Shown here: in pieces, positions 12,564-44,611 of the stretch
Numbering within the stretch: the stretch's first letter is position 1
How the letters are laid out: each line of letters begins with the position of its first letter
Source: Deltaproteobacteria bacterium HGW-Deltaproteobacteria-4
GTDB lineage: Bacteria; Desulfobacterota; Desulfuromonadia; Desulfuromonadales; UBA2197
Length of the DNA stretch: 64,000 bases
NCBI GenBank assembly: GCA_002841765.1
Contig: PHAV01000006.1
Location: 1,446-65,445, forward strand
Direction: 5' to 3'
Translations under genes and position numbers: made by a program
The notes under the pieces: generated by a model
What the model saw: only the letters and a program-made list of their open reading frames with translations
Database searches by the model: none
What the model was told of the DNA's origin: nothing

Positions 12564-13914
12564 CTTGCCAACTCGATTCACACAATATTTAGATTATTGT
12601 GACCCACCAACCATCGCAACGGGAGTCATCTGGTCACATAGAGTTACTGCGGGGTGATTGCTGCACAACTTCAAGAAGAAGCTGACGACAATCAACCAAC
12701 TGAATTTAAACACCTTTCACTAAAAATAAAACCCGCTTGGCAGCACGAAGCCGACGGCAGAGGGAAGATCTTCCCTGGTTTTTAAATTTCGGACTTGGCA
12801 ATCATCCTTCTCTCCTGTAAATCCATTAAAATTAGATTGATCAATGTAGACCTGACGTGAACAACGGTCAAGTTTTTTGCCCGTCCGGTAAATCGTCTTG
12901 GATTTAGTTCAGGGGTTGTAATGGCTCTGCTGACCCCGTTCTCAGATTCCCTGATAAATCAGAAACCCCCGATCCACTGACCGAGGGTTTTGAGTGTCTG
13001 ATTGATGGTAAGTTTTGGGATAACCCTGCCGCTGTCAGGTTTTCAGGGTTTACTTTTCCCCTTGCCGGAATCCATTTTTGGCACCTCATCCCGATCAATG
13101 GTCAGAGCTTTCACCACACTCATTCTCCCTGTCTCCAAACGAGGAGAATCAGGAGACCTAAGAAAATTACCAATGATTGACCCTAGAGAGTCCTTTTTGC
13201 GAGACATAGTTAACCTCCAAGTTGTTTTTCAGTACGATAATATTGGTAGTTTGACCTTTAAAAGATATTCTCACGAAAAACGGCTAAAGTAAAATTATTT
13301 TTATATAACGGGTATTTAGTTAACATTTCTGCTAGATTTTATTGGTCTTATTTCTGAGCAATAAAAAATTTCAATTATTTTATTGCAACAAACTGTCGTC
13401 TTTGATATATTTATATATATACCTTCCACGTTATTCCTGACGACATTCTCGACCTTCCCCGAGCAAATCCAATCAATCTCCAATTGATCTGCGACATATT
13501 TATATGCGCCTATGTATCCTTGACTTCGCTGTTAAAGTGCAGTCGCAAACTATTCTTAGTCTAGCAAAAGGAGGTGTGTCTATGCTATATGTCGACATGT
13601 TTATCACGTAGGACTGCGCTCAGTCGCTGAAACGGACTGTCGTCGGGTTACCAGAACCCAAAATTGTGGTTATACTTTTGTTGATTTAAGGCCATTCGAG
13701 TTACGTTAAACTCTCAAAAAAACCTTTATATCAACAAAAATTACAGAAATGTTGAAAATGATTCATGGCCATTCTAAAAAAACCGTTTATTCAAAAGAGG
13801 TTACACGCTCACTCACTCACTCCATGAGTGAGAAAGGTGAATATAACCATTTTAATTCGGGGGAAGTGTTTGTTGCTGTTGCTGAGACGGGTTCTTGAAA
13901 ATTCGAGGGAAAAC

Positions 13915-14481
13915 GTGGTTGAAGACCGGAAGAAAAGATTAATAGAATTGTTGCGCGATCCCGACCCGGAAATTCGGAAGGCGGCTGCAGAGTCCCTGAA
14001 TATTGTGGAATCGTTCTCTTCCCTCGATAGAATTTTAGAGATTTTACGGGGGGGAGAGCGAGGCGCCAAGGTCAACGCCATTTTTGCCCTTGAACGGATC
14101 GACTCCGACAAAGTTTTTCCTCCCCTGCTGCAGCTCTTGCAGCAGGCCGATGCAGATTTACGTGCGACCGCCATTCAAGTGCTGGGGACAAAAAAGAATC
14201 CCCAAACTTTGGGGGCGCTCGTCAAACATCTTAAAGATCCTCATCCCGCTGTTCGCGTTCATGCTGCGACCGCCGTCGGCCACTTCTCTGATAAACGACT
14301 TATCCCCTACCTGGCAGCACTCATCAACGAAAAAGATGACACGTTAGCGGCTGCGGCGATAAAATCCCTCGGGCAAATCGGCACAGTCGAATGTGAACCA
14401 CGCATCCTCGCCGCTATGCTAGATCCCCGGCCAGCGGTACGCCTTGCGGCGGCCCGGGCAATCTCCGTTATCGCTATTTAG
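13915..14481 (+). CDS. HEAT repeat protein
   Basis: Repeated DPxxxVRxxAAxALG units. GTG 13915 after GAGGGA preferred to the ORF start at 13828. Confidence 0.8.
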   Translation: MVEDRKKRLIELLRDPDPEIRKAAAESLNIVESFSSLDRILEILRGGERGAKVNAIFALERIDSDKVFPPLLQLLQQADADLRATAIQVLGTKKNPQTLGALVKHLKDPHPAVRVHAATAVGHFSDKRLIPYLAALINEKDDTLAAAAIKSLGQIGTVECEPRILAAMLDPRPAVRLAAARAISVIAI

Positions 14482-14499
14482 CCTTCCTGATCCGTCGCC

Positions 14500-15825
14500 C
14501 TAAAAATATTCGGTGACATCCACGCCCTTGGTCAAAGGATCAACTTCGCCAATAATCCTTGCTGTCTCGGTATTAACCAGTTCGATCAACGGCAGAGTGG
14601 TGAGTCTGGTGCCGCTGCTGTCAAAAAGAATCTTGAGCTTTACTGCTTCTCGTCCCTGTACCTCAACTTTGACGACAAGGCCGATTTCATTGGAATCAAG
14701 ACGGACCAGAGTCCCGACTGGATAGGTGCCGAGGGAGGTAATGAATTTTTCGACAAAGTCGGGATGTAGCGCTGTGCCCGACAACTTCCGCAACTGTTCC
14801 GTTGCATTCCTGGGTGTCCTGGGGCGCTGATAAGAGCGCAGAGTCGTCAAGGCATCATAGGTGTCGGCAATCGCCGTCATATCGATCATCGGACTCATGG
14901 TCTGACCCAGTGCCGAGGCCGGGTAGCCGCTGCGATCAAAGCGCAGGTGATGTCCAAGAACAATGTCTACCACTTCCGCTGTGATCCCCTCCATCTCCAC
15001 AACCAAGGCCGCGCCGTCGCCAGGATGTTTTTTGATCTCGACAAACTCTTCAAGGGTTAAACGGCCAGGCTTGGTGATAATATCTACATCGACTTTGAGT
15101 TTGCCAAGATCGTGCAGCAGGGCACCGAGGCCAAGCGTCCGCAACTGCTCTTCATTCAGGCCGCAGGCGCGGCCAACCGCCAGCGAGATGACGGAGACAT
15201 TGACTGAGTGCGTAAAGGTGTAGTTGTCATAATCTTTAAGCATTGACAGCGCAAAGAGCGTGTCGGGTTCGGAGATCATCAATTTGACCATATCCCCCAT
15301 GACACTGACTGCTTCAGTCGATGAAGGAATTTTTCCGAGGCGGACATCATGAAAAATATTATCCACCACTTTCAGCGCCCGTCCATAGACGGCCCGGGGC
15401 GCTTGATTTTCTTGTTCCGATTCCTGCACTAAAGGATGAATATGCGGGAAGTGTCTTGCCGAGAAAATGCTTTCCACGGACTGAGCGTTTATTGTCGGCG
15501 TCGTTAACAAAGTCAGCAGTCTGGAAAATTCATCTTCGTTTACACCTGACTCGAACTGCAATCCTGTTAACCCCGCGCGCTGCAAGAGCTTGACGAGGTC
15601 GTCTGCCGCAGGCATATCGGCTGAGAGCAGCAGGTCGTCGACGACCAGCGCCCCATCATGCAGCCCGATGCGGAGTGAAGAATGTTTTTGATGGCAGACC
15701 TGCAGGACCCCAAGAAAAGTCCGCATTTGACGGGCAAGCGCAGGATGCTGCAGCGGATAAAGTTTCAAACCCTTCAGGCTGCTGACAAAGGCTTGAACCA
15801 GCTGCCGGGCAATCTCCTCAGTCAT
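14500..15825 (-). CDS. HD-GYP domain cyclic-dinucleotide phosphodiesterase
   Basis: YTFTHSVNV, LHDLGK, HHLRFDRSGYP, RSYQRP. Confidence 0.9.
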   Translation of the reverse strand: MTEEIARQLVQAFVSSLKGLKLYPLQHPALARQMRTFLGVLQVCHQKHSSLRIGLHDGALVVDDLLLSADMPAADDLVKLLQRAGLTGLQFESGVNEDEFSRLLTLLTTPTINAQSVESIFSARHFPHIHPLVQESEQENQAPRAVYGRALKVVDNIFHDVRLGKIPSSTEAVSVMGDMVKLMISEPDTLFALSMLKDYDNYTFTHSVNVSVISLAVGRACGLNEEQLRTLGLGALLHDLGKLKVDVDIITKPGRLTLEEFVEIKKHPGDGAALVVEMEGITAEVVDIVLGHHLRFDRSGYPASALGQTMSPMIDMTAIADTYDALTTLRSYQRPRTPRNATEQLRKLSGTALHPDFVEKFITSLGTYPVGTLVRLDSNEIGLVVKVEVQGREAVKLKILFDSSGTRLTTLPLIELVNTETARIIGEVDPLTKGVDVTEYF

Positions 15826-29856: not shown

Positions 29857-29886
29857 AATAGGTTAGCGAAAAATCGCTAACCTATT
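29857..29886. terminator. Hairpin downstream of the displaced tRNA 3' fragment
   Basis: AATAGGTTAGCGA-aaaa-TCGCTAACCTATT perfect inverted repeat. Confidence 0.75.
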
Positions 29887-29890
29887 GAAA

Positions 29891-29937
29891 TTTGGTGGAG
29901 CTGAGCGGGATCGAACCGCTGGCCTATGCATTGCGAA
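29891..29937 (-). repeat. att direct repeat (displaced 3' half of tRNA-Ala), copy 1
   Basis: 47 bp identical to 42020-42066, ending exactly at the anticodon loop. Confidence 0.95.
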
Positions 29938-30092
29938 TTCTTAAATCTGTCCATTTCATATCGTTTCATCTCGCACCAACCCCCCTGTAAGTTTTAAATA
30001 AAAATGGTTACATTTCAATGCTTTTGCCTTATTATGTGAGGAATAGAAGTTCATCTCTTTCCATCTGTTTTCATCTTAAACCGGCATAGCAG

Positions 30093-30116
30093 AGCATATA
30101 CTTCAGCATATACTTC
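30093..30116 (+). repeat. Tandem 12-bp arm-type repeats (AGCATATACTTC x2)
   Basis: Exact tandem duplication, with a matching pair at 41945-41968. Confidence 0.75.
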
Positions 30117-30138
30117 GGCAGAAAAAGGAGTTAGGTGT

Positions 30139-31401
30139 ATGGCCTTCACCGATCCATATGTAAGAACCCTCAAGACGACAAAGCGGATTGAAGACTTTCG
30201 AGAGAAAACGGGCGACGGTTTTGGAATCCGCTGCTATGCCACCGGCACAAAGGTCTTTTTCTTTGCCTATCACTTCGACAGCAAGCCACGATATTTGAAC
30301 TTAGGGAAATATCCCGCATGTTCGCTTGCCGATGCTCGAAAAAAGCATAGGGAGGCGCAGGGGAAACTGGATAAAGGGATTGATCCTCTGGCTGAAAAGG
30401 AACAGGCGGAAGCTGACCGTAAAAAGACCCCGACCGTTGCTGAGTTAATCGAAGAATACATGACCAAGCACGCTAAGCCCCATAAGAAGGACTGGAAAAA
30501 AGACGAATGCTGCCTCAAAAATGATGTCCTGCCCGCTTGGGGGAATCGTAAGGCTTCAGACATCAAGAAACGGGATGTCATCCTTCTTTTGGAAAGTATT
30601 TTAGAGCGGGGCGCGCCCATCCAGTCGAACAGCGTGCTGGCTGTCACTCGCAAGATGTTTAACTTTGCCATAGAAAGAGATATTTTGGAGTACAGCCCTT
30701 TTGTTGGGGTCAAACCTCTCGGCCCCAAGGTAGTTCGTAAGCGCTATCTTGCAGAAGACGAGATAAAAACATTATGGGGAAATCTTGCTGTAGCTGGTAT
30801 GACCGATGAGCTTAGGCGGGCATTGAAATTGATATTGGTAACGGCGCAGAGGCCGGGAGAAGTCATAGGGATGCATCGGCGTGAGGTTAACGGGCACTGG
30901 TGGTCGATCCCAGCGGAGCGCGCCAAGAATAATCGTGAGCATCTTGTTTACCTCACGGACAGGGCTATCGAATTAATTGGTGACAAAGACGGCTTTATTT
31001 TTGAGTCTCCTCGCGGGGGTAAGCCGATTGATGTTAATGCGCTTGCTAATGCGGTAAGACAGAACTGCCCGACAGATTGTTGCTTTGATCTCAGTTGTTG
31101 CCAGAATGAAGAGTGCAAGAAGGTCGGTCGCGAGTGTGCTGAGAAGAATAGGCTGGGAATTGTTTTCTTCCGACCGCATGATCTGCGGCGCACGGCGAAT
31201 ACCCACATGGCTCGGATGAAGGTTCCCCTGGAACACCGCGAGGCGATTTTGAATCATGCGATGGGGACGCTGGATGGGACCTACAATCTTCATGATTATC
31301 AGGATGAGAAGAGGCGAGGTCTTGAAAGATTAGGGCGGGAACTTGGAAAAATAATCAGCGGCAAGGAGTCGGGGGAAGTGTTTTCCACCGCGGCCAGTTA
31401 A
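30139..31401 (+). CDS. int: Tyrosine integrase with N-terminal arm-binding domain (P4-like)
   Basis: GFGIRC...KVFFFAY...YLNLGKYP..SLADAR, AQRPGEV, HDLRRT, ILNH, GTYN. Confidence 0.95.
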   Translation: MAFTDPYVRTLKTTKRIEDFREKTGDGFGIRCYATGTKVFFFAYHFDSKPRYLNLGKYPACSLADARKKHREAQGKLDKGIDPLAEKEQAEADRKKTPTVAELIEEYMTKHAKPHKKDWKKDECCLKNDVLPAWGNRKASDIKKRDVILLLESILERGAPIQSNSVLAVTRKMFNFAIERDILEYSPFVGVKPLGPKVVRKRYLAEDEIKTLWGNLAVAGMTDELRRALKLILVTAQRPGEVIGMHRREVNGHWWSIPAERAKNNREHLVYLTDRAIELIGDKDGFIFESPRGGKPIDVNALANAVRQNCPTDCCFDLSCCQNEECKKVGRECAEKNRLGIVFFRPHDLRRTANTHMARMKVPLEHREAILNHAMGTLDGTYNLHDYQDEKRRGLERLGRELGKIISGKESGEVFSTAAS

Positions 31402-31709
31402 ACCTCGCGACACATGTCGGTCAGTTTATAAATTATTTATTGTTTTGTCAAAAAATTCTTGATTTTTATTTTCCTATTAGTTATTGTTGCTCAACTTCGT
31501 TTCATAGTGCGCCAAGACTCGGCGGCGGACAGGACTTGAGCGGTTCAAGACCTCATCCAAAGAAGTAGCCGGTCATTCTCTCAAAAAACTGAATACCACG
31601 TGAAAGCGGTTCGTCCTTGGCAGGGCGATTTGGGATCATGCAAATAGAACTGGCTACCCTGAGAAATCGGGGTAGCCTTTTTGCGTTTCAGGCCGCAAAG
31701 GAGATTATG

Positions 31710-31943
31710 ATGAGTGAGAAAAAGAAAAAGGATGTGGAGATTGTATTGGTGAGTGGAGAGCAATTTTTCACAAAGCGTCAGGTAATTGCAATCACGTCAC
31801 GGAGTGCTACTAGCCTGCACAGAGACGTAAAAGCACAACGATTTCCTGCGCCTAAGAGCCTGGGCCCACTTCGTATTGGCTGGTTGAAAAGCGATATTAA
31901 CGAATGGTTAAACAGCCGTCCTTTGGTTTCAACTAAAAAATAA
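31710..31943 (+). CDS. alpA: AlpA-family regulator/excisionase
   Basis: QVIAITSRSATSLHRDVKAQRFPAPKSLGPLRIGWLKSDINEW. AAGGAG RBS, start 31707 or 31710. Confidence 0.85.
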   Translation: MSEKKKKDVEIVLVSGEQFFTKRQVIAITSRSATSLHRDVKAQRFPAPKSLGPLRIGWLKSDINEWLNSRPLVSTKK

Positions 31944-32121
31944 TTAAACGGCTATAGATGAGAGATTGCAGGGGGTGCCAGTGAAATGATTATTTGATAT
32001 AATCATTTCACAATCGATTAAAACATAGCCATATAACATGGCTCAGAACTTTAGGACTTGGTATTACGCGAACCATCGCGGCCAAGTCCTATTTTTTTTT
32101 GTCCAGAAAGAAAGGTGAGCA

Positions 32122-32538
32122 ATGAAGAAAATCCTTGAAGAGTGGGAAGAGATTAAAGCCGAGACGGTTGCTGACCTGACCACCAGACTCAAGCCGAACA
32201 TATCGGAACTCTGCCCGCCAGTGATCCTCGCCCTCGATACTCTCCGCCTCCCACAGGCAGGAATAGCTGCCGTCCTTAAAACGAAGCAGCCGAGGATTTC
32301 ATTGTTCAGGCAGGGAAAACGGCAAATGACAATAACCGAACAAGAGCGTCTTTGTGACCTTGTTGATGCAATGATTGAAAAAAACGAGCTGGATTTTTCT
32401 GCTGCGTTGAAAGCAATTGTGGAACCGGTCGAGTCGGGGGAGATCGCAGGTTGGAAAGAGTGTGTGCGGATCCAAATTGATTATGCCCGTGTTATGAACA
32501 CCATACAAAGAGCTATCATAAAAAAAAGGAAAGGGTGA
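32122..32538 (+). CDS. XRE-like HTH protein
   Basis: LRLPQAGIAAVLKTKQPRISLFRQGKR fits an HTH_3 pattern. Confidence 0.55.
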   Translation: MKKILEEWEEIKAETVADLTTRLKPNISELCPPVILALDTLRLPQAGIAAVLKTKQPRISLFRQGKRQMTITEQERLCDLVDAMIEKNELDFSAALKAIVEPVESGEIAGWKECVRIQIDYARVMNTIQRAIIKKRKG

Positions 32539-32542
32539 AATT

Positions 32543-34105
32543 ATGATGAACATGAATGAGGCTAGCGTGCAGGCTAGCCAGATTCAGGAAGATGAATTTT
32601 TCGACGAGACTGTTCCCCACGAGTTCCTAAACTATAAAAAATATATCACAAACCACCCTGAAACTCACGAGATATTGGCTTCTTTCCCTGATCGAAAAGA
32701 AGCAGAGAACGAAATTTATGGAAGAATTGAAGAAGAAACTTATAACCCACTTTTGGCGTGTAGCCTTACCACTCAGATTGGCAAGCGACACCCCAGCTGT
32801 AAGCCGGCCCGAGATAAATATGCTGTGATCAGGTGGGAAGAGCGGAGTCAAATCAAAGAACAGCGCAAGATTAACCGTGTGAGCGGGGGCAAGGTGGACA
32901 TACTTGATGACCGTTTGGAAGATGCATATGAAGATTGTCGTCAAGCATTAATATCAGGAAATCGCAACGCCCTTAACTCTTCATTGGTAAAGCTCCAAAG
33001 TTCGATTCGACAATACTGGAGCGATTACACCAAGCTTGCCAGAAAATATATTTCTGCTGACTGGAGTCCACCAGAAAATAAAATAACTTTAACCGATTTG
33101 CAGAATCGGCCTTTATTGGATTTCGTACTCTCGATTGATGAACTTGTAAATTTGGATTTGCCGGAGCGCGAAAGCATCATTGCCCCTTTTCTCCCAGCAC
33201 AGTCCTTATCAATGGTATTTGCGCCCCGTGGTCTTGGTAAAAGTTGGTTTTGTATGCAACTCGCTCTAGCCGTGGCTGATGGCCGTAAGTTCTTTGCGTG
33301 GGATGTCCCAGCGGCTCGTCGCGTCCTATACATTGACGGAGAGATGCCGCAAAAAACACTCGTGGATCGATTCAGGTCGTTGAGCCATGGCTTGCCAAGC
33401 ATCCTTGACGTCTTGTCTTCTGAACGTTTGTGGATAGATGATCGGGGACTGAATTTGAATCTGGTCGAAGATCAAGCCCGAGTAAGCGAGCTTTTGGAAC
33501 AGATGGACTCTGTAGGTCGCCAGCCTGAGTTGATAATTATTGATAACCTGTCCAGTATGACTTCGGGCGGCGATGAAAATAGTAATAGTGAACTAGACAA
33601 TCTTTTGCAGTTTTTGGTTCGTTTGCGCCATAAAGGATTTGCGATTTTACTTGTTCATCATTCAGGTAAAGGCGGAGATCAGCGCGGAGCATCACGGCGA
33701 GAGGATTTACTTGACACCTCGATCAAGTTGAATGCGGTTAAGAACGGAGAGGTATTGAAGGGGGCAAAATTTGAAGTCGAGTTCGTCAAGGTGCGGGGTG
33801 AGCGACCGAATCCCGATAAATTAGAGGCTGAGCTAATTACTGGTGAACATGGTTGTCTTGAATGGTCTATCGGCAAAAAAGTCACCCTGTCGCCGCAAGC
33901 AAATTTATTGATAGCAATTAGGGATATTTTACCAAAGAATCAAGGAGATCTGGCCATTCATCTTGCCGTTAGCCAAGCTGCCGTTAGCCAGCAAATTAAA
34001 AGGGGTCGTGAAAATGGACACATCACGTACGACAAAAAACCTACCTTGACGGATCAGGGTATGGCCTATTGTGAGAAGATTTCTCCGGCAGGGGATCAGT
34101 TTTAG
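32543..34105 (+). CDS. AAA_25/RepA-like SF4 helicase with C-terminal wHTH (replication protein)
   Basis: APRGLGKS, LYIDGEM, LIIIDNL, LVHHSGK, RGASRRED, HTH-like tail QGDLAIHLAVSQAAVSQ. Confidence 0.85.
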   Translation: MMNMNEASVQASQIQEDEFFDETVPHEFLNYKKYITNHPETHEILASFPDRKEAENEIYGRIEEETYNPLLACSLTTQIGKRHPSCKPARDKYAVIRWEERSQIKEQRKINRVSGGKVDILDDRLEDAYEDCRQALISGNRNALNSSLVKLQSSIRQYWSDYTKLARKYISADWSPPENKITLTDLQNRPLLDFVLSIDELVNLDLPERESIIAPFLPAQSLSMVFAPRGLGKSWFCMQLALAVADGRKFFAWDVPAARRVLYIDGEMPQKTLVDRFRSLSHGLPSILDVLSSERLWIDDRGLNLNLVEDQARVSELLEQMDSVGRQPELIIIDNLSSMTSGGDENSNSELDNLLQFLVRLRHKGFAILLVHHSGKGGDQRGASRREDLLDTSIKLNAVKNGEVLKGAKFEVEFVKVRGERPNPDKLEAELITGEHGCLEWSIGKKVTLSPQANLLIAIRDILPKNQGDLAIHLAVSQAAVSQQIKRGRENGHITYDKKPTLTDQGMAYCEKISPAGDQF

Positions 34106-34264
34106 CCTTATAATTTACTTTTTATAAGCCCTGATAGTCAGACTTATAAAATAACAAAAATATTATATAAATCGAATGGTTAAAACTATATAAGCCTTAT
34201 ATTTTACCTTGATAGAAAATATTATAAGGCTCGCAATCCTTAGGATTGCGATGCCTTATATTTG
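34105..34264. promoter_or_regulatory. Putative iteron-type replication origin
   Basis: AT-rich. GCCTTATA at 34105, 34194 and 34253, inverted at 34223. Palindrome CGCAATCC-tta-GGATTGCG 34232-34250. Confidence 0.55.
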
Positions 34265-34367
34265 AGAACAAAAACCGAATAGCATCACCCAGAACTTTAG
34301 AATAGCAGTGCCCGATATTTTTATCAGGTGCTGCTTTTCTATTGATTCAGCAAGGAGGAAACAACCC

Positions 34368-34775
34368 ATGGCGTTTGTGAAAGGAAAGTCAGGCAATCCC
34401 TCAGGAAGACCGGCCGGAGCCGGCAGAGTCGCCAAACTTCGAGCAATGCTCGAACCAGAAGCACCCGCGTTGATTCAGGCGGCGATCACGGCGGCCAAGG
34501 GTGGCGATATGATCGCGATGCGCCTATGTCTTGATCGCTGCGTACCGGTACTGAAGGCCGTCACTGAGGCTGCACCATTGTCGGTGGACTTAAGCGGAAC
34601 CGCCGTCCAACAAAGTCAGGCAATATTGACGGCTGTTTCTGATGGAGTGTTGTCCATAGAGGAGGCCACCCAACTTCTCGCGGGAATCGCTTCAAGCATG
34701 AAAATTCTCGAAATTTCGGAAATGGAAAAACGACTTGAGGCGCTGGAAGAGGCCGCCGGTCAAGGAGGCAGGTAA
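34368..34775 (+). CDS. DUF5681-type, terminase-small-subunit-like protein
   Basis: MAFVKGKSGNPSGRP N-terminal motif, AGGAGG RBS, coiled-coil tail. Confidence 0.7.
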   Translation: MAFVKGKSGNPSGRPAGAGRVAKLRAMLEPEAPALIQAAITAAKGGDMIAMRLCLDRCVPVLKAVTEAAPLSVDLSGTAVQQSQAILTAVSDGVLSIEEATQLLAGIASSMKILEISEMEKRLEALEEAAGQGGR

Positions 34776-34978
34776 TGAATCGCTCAAGGTTGACTCGTCT
34801 GGAAGAGAAGATGACGCCCATCCCGCCTCGTCACTATCTTGACCCTACCACCGGCTGGCACGTCATCGGCGGAGGAAAAGGATCGGTCGGAGTGCTTTAT
34901 GCGCCGCCGATTCTCAGTAAAGAGGAGTGGCTGGCCGCAGGAAATAAGATCGCGGAGGCTTCGGAGGATCAATTCTGA
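34775..34978 (+). CDS. Hypothetical protein (67 aa)
   Basis: Coupled TAATG overlap with the upstream gene. Confidence 0.6.
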   Translation: MNRSRLTRLEEKMTPIPPRHYLDPTTGWHVIGGGKGSVGVLYAPPILSKEEWLAAGNKIAEASEDQF

Positions 34979-35031
34979 CGCCTTTAATCACTCGCGGAGA
35001 TAGAAACCCTAACCCCCAAAGGAGCTTGATC

Positions 35032-35214
35032 ATGAAAAAGAATGTTTTATCAACAAACGGAGCGCAAAGCATGACGCCGAGTAACCAGCCCGACAAGGCC
35101 AACGATCTGACCGGAGCGCGGAAGGAGATCGAGAAGCGCAAGAAGGACAACGTCGCCAGCCTTGGAAATTCCAACGGCTCAACCGGTGGCAACATCACGA
35201 AAGGAGGAAACTGA
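35032..35214 (+). CDS. Hypothetical low-complexity protein (60 aa)
   Basis: AAGGAG RBS. Stop overlaps the next start (TGATG). Confidence 0.55.
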   Translation: MKKNVLSTNGAQSMTPSNQPDKANDLTGARKEIEKRKKDNVASLGNSNGSTGGNITKGGN

Positions 35215-35972
35215 TGATTACCGCCGCCCTCAAAAAATATCATCCGTCTCTTGTATCAATGAATCATGACATTAATGCAGATCTTGCCGACTTTCATTCT
35301 GCCGTCCTCCTCGCCGTAAAGCAGTACGAGAAAGTCATCGAGGAAGCCGGAAAAGTATCTGACGACCTAAAGCCAGAGGTGAGAAGGAAGCGTCAACAAG
35401 AGATCGTCGCCAAAGCCTCTGATCAACTCCAATCAGAAGTTGATAAGGCTGCACAGCCGTACAAGGTTGCAACCGGCGAAATCCGGCAAGAGATCGAAAA
35501 CGCTAGTCGCCCAGGTATTCATAAAACCGAGACAAGCGAACTGATCGCCCTTATGAAGGCACAAGAGATCCGGCGCGTGATGTCCAGCATGAGCACCGCT
35601 GAAGCGGGGCAGCTCTTACGAGCTTCCGTGGCTGTAGGTGATCCGACCATACTTCACGCTCTGGAAGGTTTCATTGTACCGCTCGTATCGGCTCCGGTTA
35701 TGGAATTGGCGCAACAGACTTATAAGGAAACGGCCATGCCGGATCGGCTTCAAGCTCTGGCGTTGTCCGAGGAGTACGCCGGAAGCGTTGGCACAACGCA
35801 ACGATTCGTTGAATCAGCTGCGCGGGCGATTGCTGAAAAAGCTGGTCTTGGTGAGGTCTACGCTGGGCGAGGAGAAGGGAAGAGAAGCGAAGTGTTAAAT
35901 CTGAGTGATGCCGAAAAGGCCGAGTTTATTGGAGAGAACGGCCTTTCTCTCTTTAAAGAATTGATCAAATAG
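35214..35972 (+). CDS. Helical hypothetical protein with a scaffold-like C-terminal motif
   Basis: AGGAGG RBS. C-terminus KRSEVLNLSDAEKAEFIGENGLSLFKELIK. Confidence 0.7.
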   Translation: MITAALKKYHPSLVSMNHDINADLADFHSAVLLAVKQYEKVIEEAGKVSDDLKPEVRRKRQQEIVAKASDQLQSEVDKAAQPYKVATGEIRQEIENASRPGIHKTETSELIALMKAQEIRRVMSSMSTAEAGQLLRASVAVGDPTILHALEGFIVPLVSAPVMELAQQTYKETAMPDRLQALALSEEYAGSVGTTQRFVESAARAIAEKAGLGEVYAGRGEGKRSEVLNLSDAEKAEFIGENGLSLFKELIK

Positions 35973-36051
35973 CGATGCTCGCCAGTGTGGCGGCCCTCCG
36001 ATCACGGCGTTTATGAGTGAAGGACGTTCGTGATCGGAGTTTATTGTTTCA

Positions 36052-36453
36052 CTATTTAATCAATCGGGAAATCAAGGCTGCATGTCGAGAGGGTTGGCTA
36101 ACACCCTCTATCCAATCTACCAGAAATGCAGTGTCAGCACCCACCTTACGATAGGCTAACACCCCCCGCTCAATGGCCTCGTCACTGAGGTAAGTGGGGA
36201 GGAGCCCGTCATCCTCGATCATTTCGATATCTTTTCTAATGGCTCGATCTTCCAGTCCCATTTTATCAAAATCCGGCGAATCCCAAAATTTATTTGGCCC
36301 TTTCACTCCTATCATGGTGGCTTCACGCGTTTCATCATGGTGCCAAACACATAGACCATCATAAATTTCGTCACCAACTAAAACCACCACTTCGGTATCA
36401 CCCCACTGAGCCAGATGGTTTACTAGGTCTCTGATCAATTCAGAAGTATTCAT
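36052..36453 (-). CDS. Hypothetical acidic protein
   Basis: 133-aa ORF with AGGAG upstream. No family recognised. Confidence 0.6.
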   Translation of the reverse strand: MNTSELIRDLVNHLAQWGDTEVVVLVGDEIYDGLCVWHHDETREATMIGVKGPNKFWDSPDFDKMGLEDRAIRKDIEMIEDDGLLPTYLSDEAIERGVLAYRKVGADTAFLVDWIEGVSQPSRHAALISRLIK

Positions 36454-36550
36454 TTTCTTCCTCCTGTTCTATCTATCTTTTCAAATTATAAGGCATTTTA
36501 TCAAAACAGGAACGCAATAACTGGTATATCCCCCAGAAGAGAAAAGCATT

Positions 36551-37114
36551 CTATACAATTACTTGCATCCAATATCGTCCGTTATTTTCGCAGCTCTCCC
36601 AATTGACATGATAACTACCTTTTAATTTGGCAACTTGATCCTTGCGACCGGTCGGCTTAAAGATTTCCCCTTCGATGGGGCGACCATCGCGGAAATGAGC
36701 ATAGATCCCGTCAATTGAACCGCTTTGGTAAAAAAGGGGATGATTCACATGAATGACAAATATGCCACCGTCGAAACCGTTCTGTGTCAGTTGCTCCAAA
36801 AATTGCAAATCTTGGCAGGCCTTAAACATCTGCTCTGGGTGTTGCCCCTGACGAGGACATTTCAGTTCGATAGCGTAGTTTTTATCGGACTCAGGGTAAC
36901 TGACAACAATATCGATTTCTTTTTTTACCAGACCACGAGCTTTCTTGAAAAAGTGGCAGGCGGGGCGTTCAAATTGAACTTTTGCACCGCATGGCAGATG
37001 TGATCTAAGCCAATATCCTAACTCATGCTGCAAAGCAGCTTCATTGTATGTTTTATGTTCCAGTTCCGGTGACTCTCGGAAGAAGGACTCAATACAAGTT
37101 ATTATGTGTTCCAA
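36551..37114 (-). CDS. Putative PD-(D/E)XK nuclease
   Basis: NEAALQHELG...QFER...EIDIV...AIELK arrangement. Confidence 0.6.
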   Translation of the reverse strand: MEHIITCIESFFRESPELEHKTYNEAALQHELGYWLRSHLPCGAKVQFERPACHFFKKARGLVKKEIDIVVSYPESDKNYAIELKCPRQGQHPEQMFKACQDLQFLEQLTQNGFDGGIFVIHVNHPLFYQSGSIDGIYAHFRDGRPIEGEIFKPTGRKDQVAKLKGSYHVNWESCENNGRYWMQVIV

Positions 37115-37256
37115 AGCCGCCTCTTAATAGAGAAATTGGATAACTACGGCTTTGGATACCACTCTGATTTTGTATTGTCAATCAACGATAATTCAATTTT
37201 GGTTACATAGAGATATGCAACCCATAGTTGTAATCTTCCGGCAAGGATGGTGCGCT

Positions 37257-37601
37257 ATGGCTGACATGTTAACCTCTTTTGAACTTGGTCTGAAAATCAA
37301 GCAACGGCGTCACCTTGCGGGACTTTCTCAGGAGAAATTGGCCGAGATAGTGGGAGTCACTTTCCAGCAGATTCAAAAATATGAGAACGGGCAGACAACG
37401 CTCAATGTTCTTAAGCTCCAGCGGATAGCTCGCGCCCTCAATTATCCTGTCAAAGATTTTTTCGAGGATCATCCTGACGATAGCCCTCGGCTTACTGTTC
37501 AAGAAAGTGAGTTGTTGCAGGCGTTCAGAAAAATCAAAAATATGGAGTTGCGAGGGGCAGTTCTTTCTGTTGTCAGCAACATCAACAGAAAAGTTAGATA
37601 A
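37257..37601 (+). CDS. XRE/Cro-family HTH regulator
   Basis: LSQEKLAEIVGVTFQQIQKYENG. Confidence 0.9.
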   Translation: MADMLTSFELGLKIKQRRHLAGLSQEKLAEIVGVTFQQIQKYENGQTTLNVLKLQRIARALNYPVKDFFEDHPDDSPRLTVQESELLQAFRKIKNMELRGAVLSVVSNINRKVR

Positions 37602-37751
37602 TTAATTCGATCGTCAAAAGTTCAGGATATAGGTGGCTTACGGTTTTTTCCGTGGGCCATTTTTTATAGCTTCTGGCGTTTACCTGGGTTCCTTCTGTTT
37701 CATTCGGATTTATAATTCCCTTGAAGTTTAAGTCTACGCAAAAGGACGGAT

Positions 37752-38432
37752 ATGAACGTGGAGAAATTTATCAGCTATTGCAGGGTGTCGACAACGCGGC
37801 AGGGCGCAAGTGGTCTTGGGCTGGAGGCGCAGCAGAAGGCAATCTCTGACTACCTTCAAGCCGGAGAAAGGGAGTTGTTGGCGGAGTTTGTTGAGGTGGA
37901 GAGTGGCAAGAAAAATGATCGCCCCAAACTTTTAGAGGCTTTGTCTCGTTGCCGAAGCACTGGTGCGACCTTGATCATCGCCAAACTGGATCGCCTCGCC
38001 CGTAATGTTGCTTTCATCTCGCGATTAATGGATTCCGGTGTTAATTTTGTTGCCGTAGATTTCCCGCAGGCGAATCGTCTGACAGTACATATTTTAGCAG
38101 CCGTGGCCGAGTATGAAGGTAAGATGATCAGCGAACGGGTCAAGGTTGCTCTTGCTGCAGCAAAGGCGCGAGGCGTTAGGTTGGGAACGCCAGAGAATTT
38201 GACGCGAGCGGCACAGGTGAAAGGTGCAAAAGCGGGAACTCTTGCTAAGGTAATGCGGGCGGATGCTTTCGCTTTGGAATTGATTCCGATGATTGAAGGG
38301 TATCTACAGCAGGGATTGAATCTCTCTCAAATCGCCGCAAGCCTAAATTCTGCACATATCCTTAGCGCTAGAGGGCAGGCTGGTAAGTGGACTGCTCAGG
38401 CAATAAAAAATACCCTTGGGAGGACAGCATGA
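37752..38432 (+). CDS. Serine recombinase (resolvase family)
   Basis: YCRVST, VEVESG, AKLDRLAR, EYEGKMISER. Confidence 0.93.
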   Translation: MNVEKFISYCRVSTTRQGASGLGLEAQQKAISDYLQAGERELLAEFVEVESGKKNDRPKLLEALSRCRSTGATLIIAKLDRLARNVAFISRLMDSGVNFVAVDFPQANRLTVHILAAVAEYEGKMISERVKVALAAAKARGVRLGTPENLTRAAQVKGAKAGTLAKVMRADAFALELIPMIEGYLQQGLNLSQIAASLNSAHILSARGQAGKWTAQAIKNTLGRTA

Positions 38433-38602
38433 ATAAAATATCAATAAAGAAGCACAGGATTGTCGCCGCACCGCTGACTGGTATCGGCTGGGTTGCCGTT
38501 CAGGTGTGGCATGATGACGCCGGCGAGTATAGGCATGTCGCTACATATAGAAGCAAGGATGAGGCGGTGTCTTTCATAGGCAGCAAAGACACATTAGAGT
38601 GA
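38429..38602 (+). CDS. Small hypothetical protein (57 aa)
   Basis: ATGA overlap with the resolvase stop, GGAGG upstream. Confidence 0.5.
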   Translation: MNKISIKKHRIVAAPLTGIGWVAVQVWHDDAGEYRHVATYRSKDEAVSFIGSKDTLE

Positions 38603-38672
38603 CCCACCCACGATAAAATGGTATATTTTATTGTATCGTGAAACCCCTTAAAGTTAAAGGAAGTTTATTAAT

Positions 38673-39896
38673 ATGATTTTTAGCATTGAAAAAGCGATTG
38701 AACTTATAAAAAATAGCGGGGGCAAACAGACTGAGCATCCAGAATTCATGGCTATCGCTTCACATTGGCTTCAATCGCCGGAGTGTGTCCCTACTTGGGG
38801 GAATCATGAATTGAAAAACAAATGGTTAAATGTTTTATTGGCAGGGTTTTCCCTTCGGACCCAAGATGAGCTTATAAAATTAATATCCAATTCATATAGT
38901 TTTCCGTTCCCTCCATGTGAAAACCCCAAGTTTAGATTTATTGATTTATTTGCTGGAATTGGGGGGTTTCGAATATCTTTACAGGATTTGGGGGGAAAAT
39001 GCGTTTTTACAAGTGAGTGGGACAAAAACGCAAAACAGACATATTTTTCTAATTATGGTGAGATGCCATTTGGTGACATTCGTCAATTTACAGACCCAAT
39101 AACTATTACTGATGAAACATTAGACCAACTTATTCCCGATTTTGATATTTTAGCCGCTGGATTTCCTTGTCAGCCATTTAGTCTTGCGGGTGTATCAGCA
39201 AGGCAGTCGCTTGGAATTAACCATGGTTTTTCGTGTGAAACACAAGGGACCTTGTTTTTTGATATTGTCAGAATCGCAAAAGTGAAACAGCCCAAGATAT
39301 TACTGTTGGAAAATGTCAAAAACCTGAAAAGTCATGACGGAGGGAATACATTTCAAACAATCAAAAAAACTATTGAGGATGATCTCGGTTACTCATTTTC
39401 GCATAAAATTATAAATGCTAATACGGTAGTACCTCAAAATCGACAACGCTGTTTCATGGTTTGTCTTAAAAATAGGGATACGGATTTTGTTTTTCCAACA
39501 TTTGAGGGGGATCCATTACCCCTTGAGTCGATATTAGAAGAATCTCCCCCTGAAATTTATACAATTTCAGACAAACTCTGGGCAGGTCATATTTCTCGCA
39601 CTAAACGCAATATGGATAGAGGCACAGGTTTTTCGGCCTTTGAGGCAGATTTGAAGAAGCCGTCAAATACAATTGTTGCGAGATATGGCAAGGATGGTAA
39701 GGAATGTTTAATCCCTCAGGATGGAAGAAATCCTCGTATGTTGACACCGAGGGAGTGTGCGCGCCTCCAAGGGTTTCCTGAAGAATTTCTAATCCCTCAA
39801 GGAAAAACAATGGCGTACAAGCAATTCGGTAACTCCGTACCTGTACCAGTAGTCAGAAAAATAGCTAAAGAAATACGCGACCGTTATCTTTCATAG
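38673..39896 (+). CDS. dcm: C5-cytosine DNA methyltransferase (Dcm/EcoRII/SsoII-like)
   Basis: FIDLFAGIGG, GFPCQPFS, ENVKNL, QNRQR, TIVARYGKDG, LTPRECARLQGFP, YKQFGNSV. Confidence 0.93.
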   Translation: MIFSIEKAIELIKNSGGKQTEHPEFMAIASHWLQSPECVPTWGNHELKNKWLNVLLAGFSLRTQDELIKLISNSYSFPFPPCENPKFRFIDLFAGIGGFRISLQDLGGKCVFTSEWDKNAKQTYFSNYGEMPFGDIRQFTDPITITDETLDQLIPDFDILAAGFPCQPFSLAGVSARQSLGINHGFSCETQGTLFFDIVRIAKVKQPKILLLENVKNLKSHDGGNTFQTIKKTIEDDLGYSFSHKIINANTVVPQNRQRCFMVCLKNRDTDFVFPTFEGDPLPLESILEESPPEIYTISDKLWAGHISRTKRNMDRGTGFSAFEADLKKPSNTIVARYGKDGKECLIPQDGRNPRMLTPRECARLQGFPEEFLIPQGKTMAYKQFGNSVPVPVVRKIAKEIRDRYLS

Positions 39897-39921
39897 CTAC
39901 AATATATAGATTGTAAAAGTT

Positions 39922-40344
39922 ATGACCGATGTTATGACACCCACACAACGCAGTAATTGCATGTCAAAAATTAAAAACAAAAATACAAAACCTGAATTGA
40001 AGTTAAGAAAAGCTCTCTGGAATGAGGGAATTAGATACAGAATCAACACGAAATTGACCGGCAAGCCGGATATAGTATTTACTTCAAAGAAGATTGCGAT
40101 TTTTGTGGACGGTTGTTTTTGGCATTGTTGCCCAATTCACGGCACATCACCAAAATCAAATGTTCCCTTTTGGGGTTCAAAACTTCAAAAAAATATTGAA
40201 CGTGACGCGAAAGTTAATCAGCTACTAAAAGAATCAGGTTGGAATGTTTATAGAATTTGGGAACACAAAATTGATTCGGATATTGTTGGTGTTATTTCCA
40301 GTATCAAGACACTTTTGGCGTCAAGTGGCAATCACCTCTCATGA
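39922..40344 (+). CDS. vsr: Very short patch repair endonuclease
   Basis: TDVMTPTQRSNCMS, TKPE, GKPDIV, FVDGCFWH, GWNVYRIWE. Confidence 0.95.
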   Translation: MTDVMTPTQRSNCMSKIKNKNTKPELKLRKALWNEGIRYRINTKLTGKPDIVFTSKKIAIFVDGCFWHCCPIHGTSPKSNVPFWGSKLQKNIERDAKVNQLLKESGWNVYRIWEHKIDSDIVGVISSIKTLLASSGNHLS

Positions 40345-40788
40345 TTTTGTAGAGCGAAATTGGTAGAGCCAGTCTTTCATTTGTTCTGGCGTGCGTTCTA
40401 GCCACCCCTTTTTTTTTGTTAGGTTGTATAGCCAGAACTCAGTACAGTCTTCTCTGTATAGAACAACACGAGCCTCAACACCGAGTATTTTTGCTATTGA
40501 TGTAATAACTTTATATTGAGCATCTCTGTTAAACCTATCAACTATCGCATTGAGGTAATTTGTGGTTACGGCAATCCCACTTTCAACCATAGTGATCTCA
40601 TTCACAGATAACGGTACAACCTCACCATTAATAAATTTGTATTCTATGCAGTCTATATCTTGCATATATAGTTCTCTTCCTTGTTCACGATGCCACTTCA
40701 AATAATTTTCGGACCTATCTACATGGCCCTTGTCTGAACGCTGTACAGATTTGCTTCCCTGATCGTTTATAATCTTTTCCAGTGGCAT
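40339..40788 (-). CDS. Small putative PD-(D/E)XK-like protein
   Basis: WHR...QDIDCIEYK...NEIT pattern. Same strand as, and just downstream of, the HNH gene. Confidence 0.5.
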   Translation of the reverse strand: MPLEKIINDQGSKSVQRSDKGHVDRSENYLKWHREQGRELYMQDIDCIEYKFINGEVVPLSVNEITMVESGIAVTTNYLNAIVDRFNRDAQYKVITSIAKILGVEARVVLYREDCTEFWLYNLTKKKGWLERTPEQMKDWLYQFRSTKS

Positions 40789-40813
40789 AATATATCTCCT
40801 TTCCAGTAGTTAA

Positions 40814-41701
40814 CTACGCACCATAAATTCTGAGAATATCCGTAAAAGAAATTTCCAATCCCCTCAATGCTAAACGCTCATGACGTGCTTCAAAGAGGTG
40901 GCGCAGAAGCACAGCTTTTGCCGTTGGTTGTCCATGGTGAAGTGTCCTATGGCAAACTGGGCATAAAGCTACAATGTTATCCGCAACATCTAATCCGTTA
41001 ACAAACTCATTTTGCGAGGAAATGGGGATAAGGTGATGCCCTTCTACAAATGGGTTGCCTGTGGCTGCACTTATAAAGGTCCGATGAGAGTTGTCTATTT
41101 CACAGCAATAGTGAGCCGCCCTTGCAGCTGATAGCCCTAATCTTGGGTCGCGTGGGTATGTCATTCCTGTCCTGCTTACAGGAATGCTGGCCGCGACTGC
41201 TCCTATCTGGTTTTGATAAAAATCATCTTCATCATCAATATTGACCCCAGCACGGAAATTTAGAGCCGATGCTGACATTGCCGTTGAAAATAGATTGTTC
41301 CAATCTGCCGTTGACATAAATCCAACATGCGGACAAGCCTCTCCCCGACGTGAAAAAATAAACCAAATATCGGTAGCTGTGGGGTAGAACTGGCTAGAGC
41401 GAGAGAAATAAAGCCGTAATTCATTCCCCTGGCGCTTTGGGTATACTACGACAATCTGATTTGTGGAGGTGTGCCCCGAAGGTGCGTGAACTACCATAGT
41501 CCAGTCTTCTGGTTTACCGTCTGGCGCGGCCCCACCTCGACGGGTAAATCCACTTAACGGGTAACGGCCTTCCAGGACAGCTTTTTCATCAGAGTCTACG
41601 GTTACACTCTTATCTCCCGTAGCCTCGCGATCGGTTACTACCGAATATGCTCCTCGCTCAGCACCAAAATATCCACACATGTACCTGTCAAACATTGGCA
41701 T
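40814..41701 (-). CDS. HNH endonuclease with uncharacterised N-terminal domain
   Basis: CEIDNSH...FVEGHHLIP...NIVALCPVCHRTLH. Start placed at ATG 41701. Confidence 0.88.
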   Translation of the reverse strand: MPMFDRYMCGYFGAERGAYSVVTDREATGDKSVTVDSDEKAVLEGRYPLSGFTRRGGAAPDGKPEDWTMVVHAPSGHTSTNQIVVVYPKRQGNELRLYFSRSSQFYPTATDIWFIFSRRGEACPHVGFMSTADWNNLFSTAMSASALNFRAGVNIDDEDDFYQNQIGAVAASIPVSRTGMTYPRDPRLGLSAARAAHYCCEIDNSHRTFISAATGNPFVEGHHLIPISSQNEFVNGLDVADNIVALCPVCHRTLHHGQPTAKAVLLRHLFEARHERLALRGLEISFTDILRIYGA

Positions 41702-41944
41702 AAAGCACCTCTCCCAGAAAGAATTATTGTCCCGAATCAACCGGTGTATAGCGGGACAGTGACACATGTATGGTTAGCTGTCAACCCGAAAAAACATATA
41801 TATTTACCCCGTAAGTGACGGGGTAGAAAATTTTGACGTTAATTCGGGATTTTAAATCTTGTGCTCAAACTTCTCGGGAATCTTGGTGAGCCTTTGGATT
41901 GTGGCAGTGGAATAGTATTTGTTTCAGAGATGAGAAATGGCGAG

Positions 41945-41968
41945 AGTATATATTTTAGCATATACTTT
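41945..41968 (+). repeat. Tandem 12-bp arm-type repeats (AGTATATATTTT, AGCATATACTTT)
   Basis: Match the pair at 30093-30116. Confidence 0.7.
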
Positions 41969-41981
41969 TTTAAAAAAAGAA

Positions 41982-42013
41982 AATGGGTTAACCGAATAAT
42001 CGGCTAACCCATT
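41982..42013. terminator. Element-supplied hairpin downstream of the tRNA
   Basis: AATGGGTTAACCGA-ataa-TCGGCTAACCCATT, one mismatch. Confidence 0.75.
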
Positions 42014-42019
42014 GGTTTC

Positions 42020-42066
42020 TTTGGTGGAGCTGAGCGGGATCGAACCGCTGGCCTATGCATTGCGAA
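42020..42066 (-). repeat. att direct repeat, copy 2 (within the intact tRNA)
   Basis: Identical to 29891-29937. Confidence 0.95.
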
Positions 42067-42097
42067 CGCATCGCTCTCCCAACTGAGCTACAGCCCC
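42022..42097 (-). tRNA. tRNA-Ala(CGC)
   Basis: 76-nt cloverleaf GGGGCTGTAGCTCAGTTGG...TTCGCAA...GGTTCGATCC...CCACCA, with G3:U70 and encoded CCA. Confidence 0.97.
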
Positions 42098-42194
42098 AAA
42101 CGGGAGTTAAGCTACACAAAGTGCTTTCCCCTGTCAACCGAAAGAGAAGGATGATTGACTCTTTTCTCACCATCTGCTACAAATTTTTCACTTA

Positions 42195-42362
42195 AAATCG
42201 TACGGTGCCCGTTCGCTCGGGAGAATAGGGAAGAGGGTGCAACCCCCTCGCTGCCCCGCAACTGTAAGCGGTGACGAAAGCCGAAGTTAAGCCACTGTTC
42301 GCAAGGACGGGAAGGCGCGGCAATTAGGACGATCCGCAAGTCAGGAGACCTGCCGTAACGAC
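42195..42362 (+). ncRNA. Cobalamin riboswitch
   Basis: GGTGC...AATAGGGAA...CTGCCCCCGCAACTGT...GCCACTG...GGGAAGG...AAGTCAGGAGACCTGCC upstream of the cob genes. Confidence 0.93.
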
Positions 42363-43552: not shown

Positions 43553-44611
43553 ATGAATCCCCATTCCCTGCAAGCTGTCCTCAATACCATCAAGCCGGTC
43601 GATAAAACAATGATCGCCGAAGTGCAGGCCCGCCTCAACAGTCAGGCCAAACCGAAAGGTTCTCTTGGCCGCCTCGAAGAGTTTGCCCGCCGTTTTGTTG
43701 CCATCACCGGGCGGGAAGATATCCGCAAGAAAGTCGTCTTTACCTTTGCCGGCGATCACGGCATTACCGAAGAGGGGGTCAGTGCCTTCCCCAAAGAGGT
43801 GACGCCGCAGATGGTTCTCAACTTTGTCAGTGGCGGCGCAGCGATTAACGCTTTGGCCAACCATGCCGGCGCCGAGGTGATCGTTGTCGATATGGGGGTT
43901 GACTACGACTTCGCGCCGATTGCCGGACTCCTCAACAAGAAGATCGCTAAAGGGACAGCCAACTTTTCCAAAGGGCCCGCGATGAGTCGCAAGGAGGCGA
44001 TTGCGGCCCTGGAGGCGGGGATTGAACTCGCTTTTTCCAGCCGTGATGCCGGTATTGATCTCCTCGGTACCGGAGACATGGGGATCGGTAATACCACCCC
44101 GTCGGCGGCGATTGCCGCGCTCTTCACCGGGCGCTCGGTGGAGCAGGTGACCTTTCGCGGTACCGGCATCGACGACCCGACCCTTGCCCACAAGATCGCG
44201 GTGATCAAGGCGGGGATCGCCCTTAATCAACCGGACAAAGACGATCCTGTCGATGTTCTCGCCAAGGTTGGCGGTTTTGAAATTGGCGGTATCGCCGGCC
44301 TGATCCTCGGTGCCGCCGCGACCGGGATTCCGATCGTGGTCGATGGTTTCATCTCCACCGCCGGCGCCATCATCGCTTCAGAACTCCATCCCCACGTCAA
44401 GGATTACATCTTCTGCGCCCATCAGTCGGTGGAGATCGGCCATCGTCACATGCTGGAGATGCTCGGACAGAAGCCGATGCTCGATCTGGAGATGCGTCTC
44501 GGCGAAGGGACCGGTGCGGTCCTGGCGATGACCTTGATCGAAGCGTCGCTGCGCGGACTGCGGGAAATTCGCACCTTTGAAGAGGTCGGCGTGAGCAAGG
44601 CCAGCAAATAA
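43553..44611 (+). CDS. cobT: Nicotinate-nucleotide-dimethylbenzimidazole phosphoribosyltransferase
   Basis: [36 protein letters not shown]. Confidence 0.95.

Follow-up and report, generated by a model that had tools for sequence, protein, structure and literature searches.

The window analysed here is a stretch of 64,000 nucleotides from Deltaproteobacteria bacterium HGW-Deltaproteobacteria-4 (contig PHAV01000006.1), and between positions 29,891 and 42,066 it contains an island inserted at a tRNA-Ala gene. On balance it is suggested here that this island is a phage satellite of the same kind as the phage-inducible chromosomal islands (PICIs), dependent on a helper phage and packaged by phage. 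The original prediction for this DNA described a unit of 12,129 bp between attachment (att) repeats of 47 bp, and this is borne out: direct repeats of 47 bp, 100% identical to each other, lie at 29891-29937 and 42020-42066, 12,129 bp apart from start to start, and there are only these two copies in the whole genome (3.02 Mb, 30 contigs). A tRNA-Ala(cgc) gene was called by ARAGORN and Rfam at 42022-42097 on the minus strand; the right repeat covers its 3' 45 nt and the left copy is a partial duplicate. In two genomes of the same genus (G001 and G002) the site is empty, and nothing separates the left flank from an intact tRNA-Ala and the flank with the cob operon beyond it. The empty site has one copy of the 47-bp core and the native tRNA terminator hairpin, and the flanks are ~87% identical. 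Because the repeats are perfect and the site is empty in both of these genomes, the island is a recent, precise, site-specific insertion. Its GC content is 39-52%, against 52-62% in the flanks. The ends and the core of the island are as follows, L001 being the metagenomic contig with a collinear relative that is described further below.

29891..29937, no strand: left att copy, the duplicated 3' part of tRNA-Ala; perfect 47-bp repeat, single-copy empty site in G001/G002
30093..30120, plus: tandem AGCATATACTTC repeats upstream of int, candidate arm-type integrase sites; period 12, 2.3 copies
30139..31401, plus: tyrosine integrase, P4-type, with Arm-DNA-binding N-terminus; PF13356/PF22022/PF00589, phrog_1 2.7e-59
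31707..31943, plus: AlpA-family excisionase/regulator; PF05930 30.1 bits (21-bit cut-off), phrog_66/2790
32122..32538, plus: 138-aa protein coupled to rep, weak helix-turn-helix (HTH); HTH_37 E 0.0027, under the cut-off; conserved in L001
32543..34105, plus: Rep, a 520-aa AAA_25 (RecA/DnaB-like) helicase-type initiator; PF13481 1.6e-37, phage primase/helicase PHROGs
34105..34261, no strand: iteron cluster with AT-rich spacer, putative replication origin; RSCTTATAW x6
34368..34775, plus: DUF5681 protein, like a small terminase subunit (TerS); PF18932 30.6 bits, above the cut-off
34775..34978, plus: 67-aa open reading frame (ORF), translationally coupled to the TerS-like gene; L001 ortholog, dN/dS (ratio of non-synonymous to synonymous substitution rates) 0.23, no family match
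35026..35214, plus: 62-aa ORF that ends where p252 starts; small ORFs at the same position in L001, L009 and L019
35214..35972, plus: p252, 252 aa and all helix, from an uncharacterised family that is linked to terminase genes
41943..42019, no strand: conserved right end, with arm-type repeat copy and terminator hairpin; 87.8% identity to the L001 end
42020..42066, no strand: right copy of att, within the intact tRNA-Ala(cgc), from the repeat and tRNA calls

A copy related to the 12-nt AGCATATACTTC repeat is also found near the right end (repeat pair 30091-30136 and 41943-41988), and in a circular attP these repeats would flank the 47-bp core in the way that arm-type sites do, for which they are candidates. 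Behind the intact tRNA-Ala there is an island-borne terminator hairpin (41982-42013, minus strand). With its T-tract it mimics the native tRNA-Ala terminator (29857-29886, minus strand) in both sequence and position, and since it takes the place of the native hairpin the tRNA gene would keep a terminator after integration.

The integrase, alpA, AAA_25 and iterons of the original prediction, and likewise the defence cargo, were all recovered by Pfam, PHROG or PADLOC matches or by motif counts. Arm-DNA-bind_3, Phage_int_M and Phage_integrase domains were found in the integrase by Pfam. A regulatory gap of ~300 bp separates int from alpA and holds a terminator hairpin at 31652-31677. The alpA reading frame is open from 31617, and as this hairpin and a ribosome-binding site precede the ATG at 31707, translation probably begins there to give a protein of 78 aa; the L001 ortholog has 80 aa. 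The HTH gene that had been predicted is present as the 138-aa ORF, but its HTH match is weak and falls below the cut-off. No primase domain was detected in Rep by the Pfam and PHROG scans; in relatives of this protein the N-terminus is of the Zn-ribbon DnaG, PrimPol or DUF6371 type, and a MarR winged HTH is present. The iteron RSCTTATAW occurs six times, in both orientations, within a stretch of 157 bp, as against 1.84 occurrences expected in 64 kb.

The DUF5681 gene, which is open from GTG 34308 and probably starts at ATG 34368, heads a tight operon of four genes (DUF5681, 67 aa, 62 aa and 252 aa). Searching 50,697 phage genomes (2.3 Gb) with the protein by tblastn gave 15 phage matches with E from 5e-7 to 7e-4. 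Among Burkholderia phages of the phiE131/PE067 type and Vibrio phages of the 1.039.O type, the homolog is the first gene, directly upstream of the gene for the large terminase subunit (TerL), which is followed by the portal gene. On the record of Yersinia phage P400 the homolog comes last and TerL first, on the same strand, which makes them neighbours on a circular map. Several of the phage homologs carry the annotation 'terminase small subunit'. The proteins can be aligned over their full length, with GNPxGRP in the basic N-terminus, then helices, and at the C-terminus a coiled coil with ELExRLExLE. In the AlphaFold2 model of the island protein (pLDDT 81) the basic N-terminus is disordered, and there are short helices and one long helix at the C-terminus, an architecture that a DNA-binding subunit able to oligomerise could have. 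No annotated PHROG exists for the island protein and no PHROG named TerS matches it. Its assignment is based on homology and conserved position, for which we use the term TerS-like, and in this sense the TerS-like operon of the original prediction is supported.

Genes of the same family also lie beside primase/helicase genes in small islands, both in other lineages, among them one Alphaproteobacteria metagenome-assembled genome, and in the host order. Two of these loci (L035 and L050) have an integrase as well, and the rest are contig fragments. In the host order DUF5681 was found in 6 of the 233 species representatives, and the contexts that are long enough to read (L049, L050 and L051) are island-like, with the gene beside a primase or helicase gene. 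A scan of IMG/VR with DUF5681 returned four contigs, two of them with a primase or helicase nearby instead of a recognisable TerL. At L049 (G112:C1:3428000-3447999), in a genome of the same order, an island with primase, helicase and DUF5681 genes adjoins the end of a Mu-like prophage (MuA phrog_310, MuB phrog_296), and its primase region is interrupted by a transposase.

The last gene of the operon codes for p252, which has no match in Pfam, PHROG, NCBIfam, PADLOC or the PDB and no relatives in the 50,697 phage genomes. A profile hidden Markov model (HMM) of p252 found 102 clusters among 1.84 billion representatives; there is one GTDB representative overall, and matches in two of the 233 species representatives of the host order are one to the genome itself and one that is weak and partial. 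A homolog, P0130 (HMM E 1e-49), is found directly after TerS (phrog_309) and TerL (Terminase_3) in a second island, L013, in which the gene order is int, HTH_17 excisionase, AAA_25 primase/helicase, SNF2/DEAD helicase, RuvC-like resolvase, TerS, TerL and p268. Perfect 46-bp repeats at tRNA-Arg(cct) delimit the L013 element, which forms a unit of 14,164 bp and has no capsid, portal or tail genes; it is a candidate for a satellite that brings its own complete terminase. To judge from gene order, members of the p252 family stand with terminase genes in two island backbones that differ from each other and are both integrated at tRNA genes; the family was found in no phage. Because of this company, the operon may be a packaging or hijacking module, and this is the strongest new argument for that view.

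The L013 island occupies 649-14858 of JAWOEB010000162.1 (GCA_046482985.1), and L014 and L015 were likewise noted. Genes of ~220-250 aa in L002 and L006-L008 are positional analogues only, and homology with p252 could not be demonstrated for them. A degraded relative, L016, is present at 9397-12657 of NODE_1037 of bin.30 in ENA, with a 94-aa integrase fragment, a 56-aa ORF and p253, a protein 51% identical to p252; after p253 come three ORFs on the minus strand and an HTH_3 gene, and there is no rep and no TerS-like gene.

The right half of the island contains the following features.

36052..36453, minus: 133-aa ORF, conserved in L001 with dN/dS 0.16; no family match
36551..37114, minus: 187-aa ORF with an L001 ortholog; no family match
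37257..37601, plus: Cro/C1-type HTH_3 regulator; PF01381 1.5e-15, PADLOC control-protein/RmrA-like N-terminus
37752..38432, plus: small serine recombinase (resolvase/invertase); PF00239 7e-29, phrog_125; marks the left edge of the cargo slot
38433..41942, no strand: variable cargo region with 71-aa ORF, Dcm, Vsr, 149-aa ORF and HNH
38673-39896, plus: Dcm C5-methyltransferase, cargo
39922-40344, plus: Vsr, cargo
40339-40788, minus: 149-aa ORF, cargo
40814-41767, minus: HNH nuclease, cargo

A D...ELK motif seen by eye in the 187-aa ORF suggests a PD-(D/E)XK-like nuclease. The reading frame of the HTH_3 regulator is open from TTG 37152, and its L001 ortholog has 114 aa. The LexA box of the Geobacter type is absent from the island and was rejected as a means of control of the packaging operon. 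PADLOC recognised a type II methyltransferase, Vsr and a type IV/II restriction endonuclease-like protein in the cargo. Among the island ORFs of at least 60 aa, Pfam and PHROGs gave no match to families of the capsid, portal, protease, tail, holin/lysin or large terminase, in agreement with the earlier statement that capsid, tail, portal and large terminase are missing.

Relatives of the island that share its backbone are metagenomic contigs, which were reached through homologs of Rep. From att as far as 38412, at the end of the resolvase gene, L001 (Rep 88% identical) is collinear with the island, and 90-92% of the nucleotides are identical; a 765-aa methyltransferase fusion and a 510-aa protein make up its cargo, and similarity resumes over the last ~100 bp. 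The cargo of L002 (Rep 52%) is a Bub/Bil ubiquitin-like system (Multi_ubiq-ThiF-BubE) and that of L009 a type IIG restriction-modification (R-M) system. L006-L008 have a Zn-ribbon primase Rep together with radical-SAM cargo, and L006 adjoins tRNA-Arg. Both L001 and L002 start and end within tRNA-like att repeats. The serine resolvase is present in L001, L002 and L006-L009. Comparison with L001, L002 and L009 places the exchange of cargo at one slot, 38412-41944, which extends from the 3' end of the serine-resolvase gene to the last ~80 bp of the element. Between the island and L001, dN/dS is 0.06 for int, 0.49 for rep, 0 for DUF5681 (100% amino acid identity), 0.16 for p252, 0.11 for the resolvase and 0.16 for the 138-aa HTH protein. 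The core is under purifying selection (dN/dS 0-0.49), and from these comparisons the family appears to be a living one, in which the core is conserved and there is one slot for cargo, rather than a decayed remnant.

The five core components of PICIs have been described as an integrase, an alpA/merR/stl regulator, a primase-replicase, a capsid morphogenesis gene and TerS, and >99.9% of the predicted PICIs, as defined in that study, are from Proteobacteria and Firmicutes (de Sousa et al. 2023, PMC10085698). In the island the integrase lies at one end with specific att repeats and an alpA-type regulator is next to it; tail, holin, portal and head-tail connector genes have no Pfam or PHROG match among its ORFs of at least 60 aa. 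The primase-replicase component is represented by the AAA_25 Rep and the adjacent iteron cluster, with no primase domain. A capsid-morphogenesis gene (cpm or capsid-like), which is optional in the variants of the Staphylococcus aureus pathogenicity island (SaPI) type, is matched by no island ORF. If Rep without a primase domain and the DUF5681 TerS-like gene are counted, four of the five functional components would be present.

The likeness is closest to the pac-type PICIs with a TerS of their own, such as the SaPIs and the Gram-negative alpA-type islands. Common to both are a size of ~12 kb, direct att repeats, the absence of structural, lysis and TerL genes, the order int, alpA, rep, iteron origin (putative in the island) and packaging genes including a TerS homolog (the TerS-like gene in the island), and defence cargo at the far end. 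The island differs in that it has no homologs of cpm or capsid-like genes, ppi or rpp, in that its Rep is an AAA_25 protein without a recognisable primase domain, in keeping a conserved serine resolvase and p252, and in its host, a groundwater bacterium outside the main PICI taxa. A TerS carried by the element in the absence of TerL, in the order int-alpA-rep-ori-terS, is the defining strategy of PICIs and SaPIs. The original prediction had regarded the packaging module as lying outside the known types, and this part of it has to be given up, as it is the gene families alone that are unusual. DUF5681 is not known to be among the TerS families of described PICIs.

P4-like satellites share with the island a P4-type integrase, alpA, integration at a tRNA gene and a hotspot for defence cargo. 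P4 itself is packaged by the cos mechanism without a TerS of its own. P4-like identity was rejected, since Pfam and PHROG gave no matches to psu, sid, delta, Ash/epsilon or the alpha primase-helicase, which leaves int and alpA as all that the two have in common. The island is not a capsid-forming PICI, as it has no capsid, portal, head-tail adaptors or TerL of its own. The PICI-like elements (PLEs) are presumably distinct too, going by the PLE markers, for which no search was made here. No relaxase or type IV secretion system family was found in the island such as would characterise an integrative mobilizable element (IME) of the type of Salmonella genomic island 1 (SGI1) or the mobilizable genomic islands (MGIs), and this leaves room for a cryptic oriT. 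The virion-encapsidated integrative mobile elements (VEIMEs) of the sea are an environmental parallel: they too have a tyrosine integrase, AlpA and a primase/helicase, some of them also a TerS homolog, and their cargo is R-M or abortive infection. They were defined by sequencing of virus particles, whereas the island is known from its genes, and habitat and host differ (Eppley et al. 2022, PMC9618062). The PICMIs (phage-inducible chromosomal minimalist islands) resemble it in the core of int, alpA and replication genes, in defence cargo and in a possible virulent, non-resident helper. They are nevertheless set apart by their position next to fis, a DUF3987/DUF5906 primase, a size of ~6 kb and the lack of terS, where the island is at tRNA-Ala, has an AAA_25 Rep and no such primase, is 12 kb long and carries a TerS-like gene, and PICMI identity was rejected on these grounds (Barcia-Cruz et al. 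2024, PMC10803314).

From this gene content we infer how induction, replication and packaging might proceed and where p252 might act. A helper phage that is not resident in the genome, either infecting or induced, would bring about de-repression by way of AlpA and the HTH regulators. Int and AlpA would then excise a 12.1-kb circle, recreating attP with the AGCATATACTTC arm-type sites on either side of the 47-bp core, and the circle could replicate after binding of the AAA_25 Rep to the six iterons, which follow directly on rep. The DUF5681 TerS homolog may recognise a pac site of the element and recruit the large terminase of the helper, which would bring satellite DNA into helper capsids, with the two small ORFs and p252 assisting packaging or interfering with the helper. 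The particle would inject a new host, in which Int could reintegrate the element at tRNA-Ala. The exchangeable anti-phage systems in the slot between resolvase and right end, here Dcm/Vsr/HNH, might repay the host for the upkeep of the element.

A number of observations weigh against the satellite interpretation. TerS homology, the link of p252 to terminases, purifying selection and absence in congeners speak for the satellite-like reading of the original prediction and make it stronger than it was from the letters alone; excision, replication, encapsidation and a helper are conjectured from the genes. The prediction had looked to helper prophages in the genome, and none came to light: the marker families PF05065, PF03354, PF03237 and PF04860 (HK97 capsid, TerL_ATPase, Terminase_6N and Phage_portal) had no match in the genome, for which completeness is estimated at 100%, nor did the TerL and portal proteins that accompany DUF5681 in phages when used in tblastn. 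With the HK97 capsid, two TerL families, the portal and the DUF5681-associated TerL and portal types all absent, a resident helper prophage was rejected on these markers. Scans of IMG/VR with the p252 profile and with Rep gave no relatives, the Rep scan, which used single-protein patterns, being able to detect close relatives only. In Logan contigs the depth of the island is 121, of the flanks 107-114 and of the 47-bp repeat unitig 216, and at k=31, which is shorter than the repeat, attP and attB are indistinguishable; these depths match the expectation for an integrated single copy and show no over-replication.

The packaging proteins themselves add to this side of the balance. The DUF5681 protein has no match in the PDB, and so none to a solved TerS, either by sequence profile or by the fold of its AlphaFold2 model. 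The one paper found that names the family lists a virion-associated protein of unknown function, and the literature search found no published experiment on it. In the host order every DUF5681 gene found is in an island and none in a prophage. On the virome scaffold MT836812 (an 8.7-kb 'Bacteriophage sp.') the gene is followed by tail genes and not by TerL; this scaffold, although the best DUF5681 match, was set aside as uninformative, the genes after DUF5681 being those for a tail chaperone, a tape measure and Mob_Pre. For p252, whose AlphaFold2 model is entirely helical (pLDDT 87), there are no significant fold neighbours in PDB or BFVD and no match to a scaffold: the best Foldseek hits, long helical pore-forming toxins, are non-significant (E at least 0.056, TM 0.2-0.3), and BFVD gave none. 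On this model the evidence speaks neither for nor against p252 as a scaffold or Sid-like protein.

It is conceivable, even if we consider it rather unlikely, that the element is an integrative self-replicating island which moves without capsids, as an IME with a conjugative helper acting on an unrecognised oriT, by transformation or in vesicles, and that DUF5681 and p252 are DNA-binding, regulatory or maintenance proteins. The layout of int, xis and rep followed by resolvase and cargo would also fit IMEs of the SGI1 type, and such an island would account for DUF5681 genes that in the host order stand beside primase or helicase genes and never beside TerL, for the missing fold support for a TerS, for the lack of a helper prophage and for the lack of IMG/VR relatives of p252 or Rep. 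On the other hand, the island has no relaxase, type IV coupling protein, VirB4 or mobilisation-protein family, and relaxase and VirB4 (PF03432 and PF03135) are absent genome-wide, and a resident conjugative helper was rejected on these two markers; furthermore DUF5681 homologs occupy the TerS position in three groups of phages, and in L013 the relative of p252 comes after TerS and TerL genes that are genuine. It seems to us improbable that the element is a remnant, immobile or in decay, of a former satellite or prophage, one that has stopped excising and being packaged and is kept only as a defence island. Such a remnant would need no helper and would have a depth near that of the chromosome, as is the case here, and the family is rare (the two of 233 species representatives in the order) with one clearly degraded member in L016. 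Nevertheless the perfect 47-bp repeats and the absence from genomes of the same genus indicate recent insertion, all core ORFs are intact with dN/dS as given above against a copy that is ~91% identical, arm-type repeats and terminator mimic are conserved at the ends, and the cargo in this slot differs between several variants. For these reasons a decayed prophage was rejected, and a helper-dependent satellite of the PICI kind is the interpretation that we prefer.

The logic of hijacking is known; what is new is a TerS-like protein of the DUF5681 type, the terminase-associated p252 family, the cargo slot bounded by a resolvase and the host setting. If the satellite interpretation is true, it would extend PICI-type satellites to groundwater bacteria of the metal-reducing type, where the literature searched has none characterised, and DUF5681 would be a family of small terminases used by phages and satellites alike. 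The modular exchange of defence at one slot (type II R-M, type IIG R-M and Bub/Bil) supports the idea that satellites distribute defence genes in natural communities. The value is limited, as the architecture falls within a paradigm already established and the host genome is environmental and uncultured. More tentatively, it is possible that the island and the L013-type islands represent undescribed satellite families that share a new helical packaging-associated hijacking factor, the p252 family, and that the resolvase defines a dedicated slot for cargo exchange. p252 is a concrete candidate for a new hijacking function, and it could be an adaptor that couples the satellite terminase to the portal or procapsid of the helper, or else a blocker of helper packaging.

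A second island was seen in the same genome at a contig end (C23:185.6-206 kb; L011 and L012), with a P4-type integrase that is 44.5% identical to that of the 12.1-kb island. It carries a Type I R-M system (HsdM, HsdS and HsdR), into which a 1439-aa NOV_C protein and a Schlafen/AlbA-HATPase protein are interposed; beyond this system come a CHC2-zinc-finger/AAA_25 primase-helicase and an HTH_3 gene with 47% identity to the one in the 12.1-kb island. The second island has no homolog of DUF5681 or p252. To the right of the 12.1-kb island in the window, directly beyond the tRNA-Ala, a cobalamin riboswitch (63 bits, from 42186-42300 onward) heads a cob/cbi operon, in which CobT is encoded at 43553-44611.

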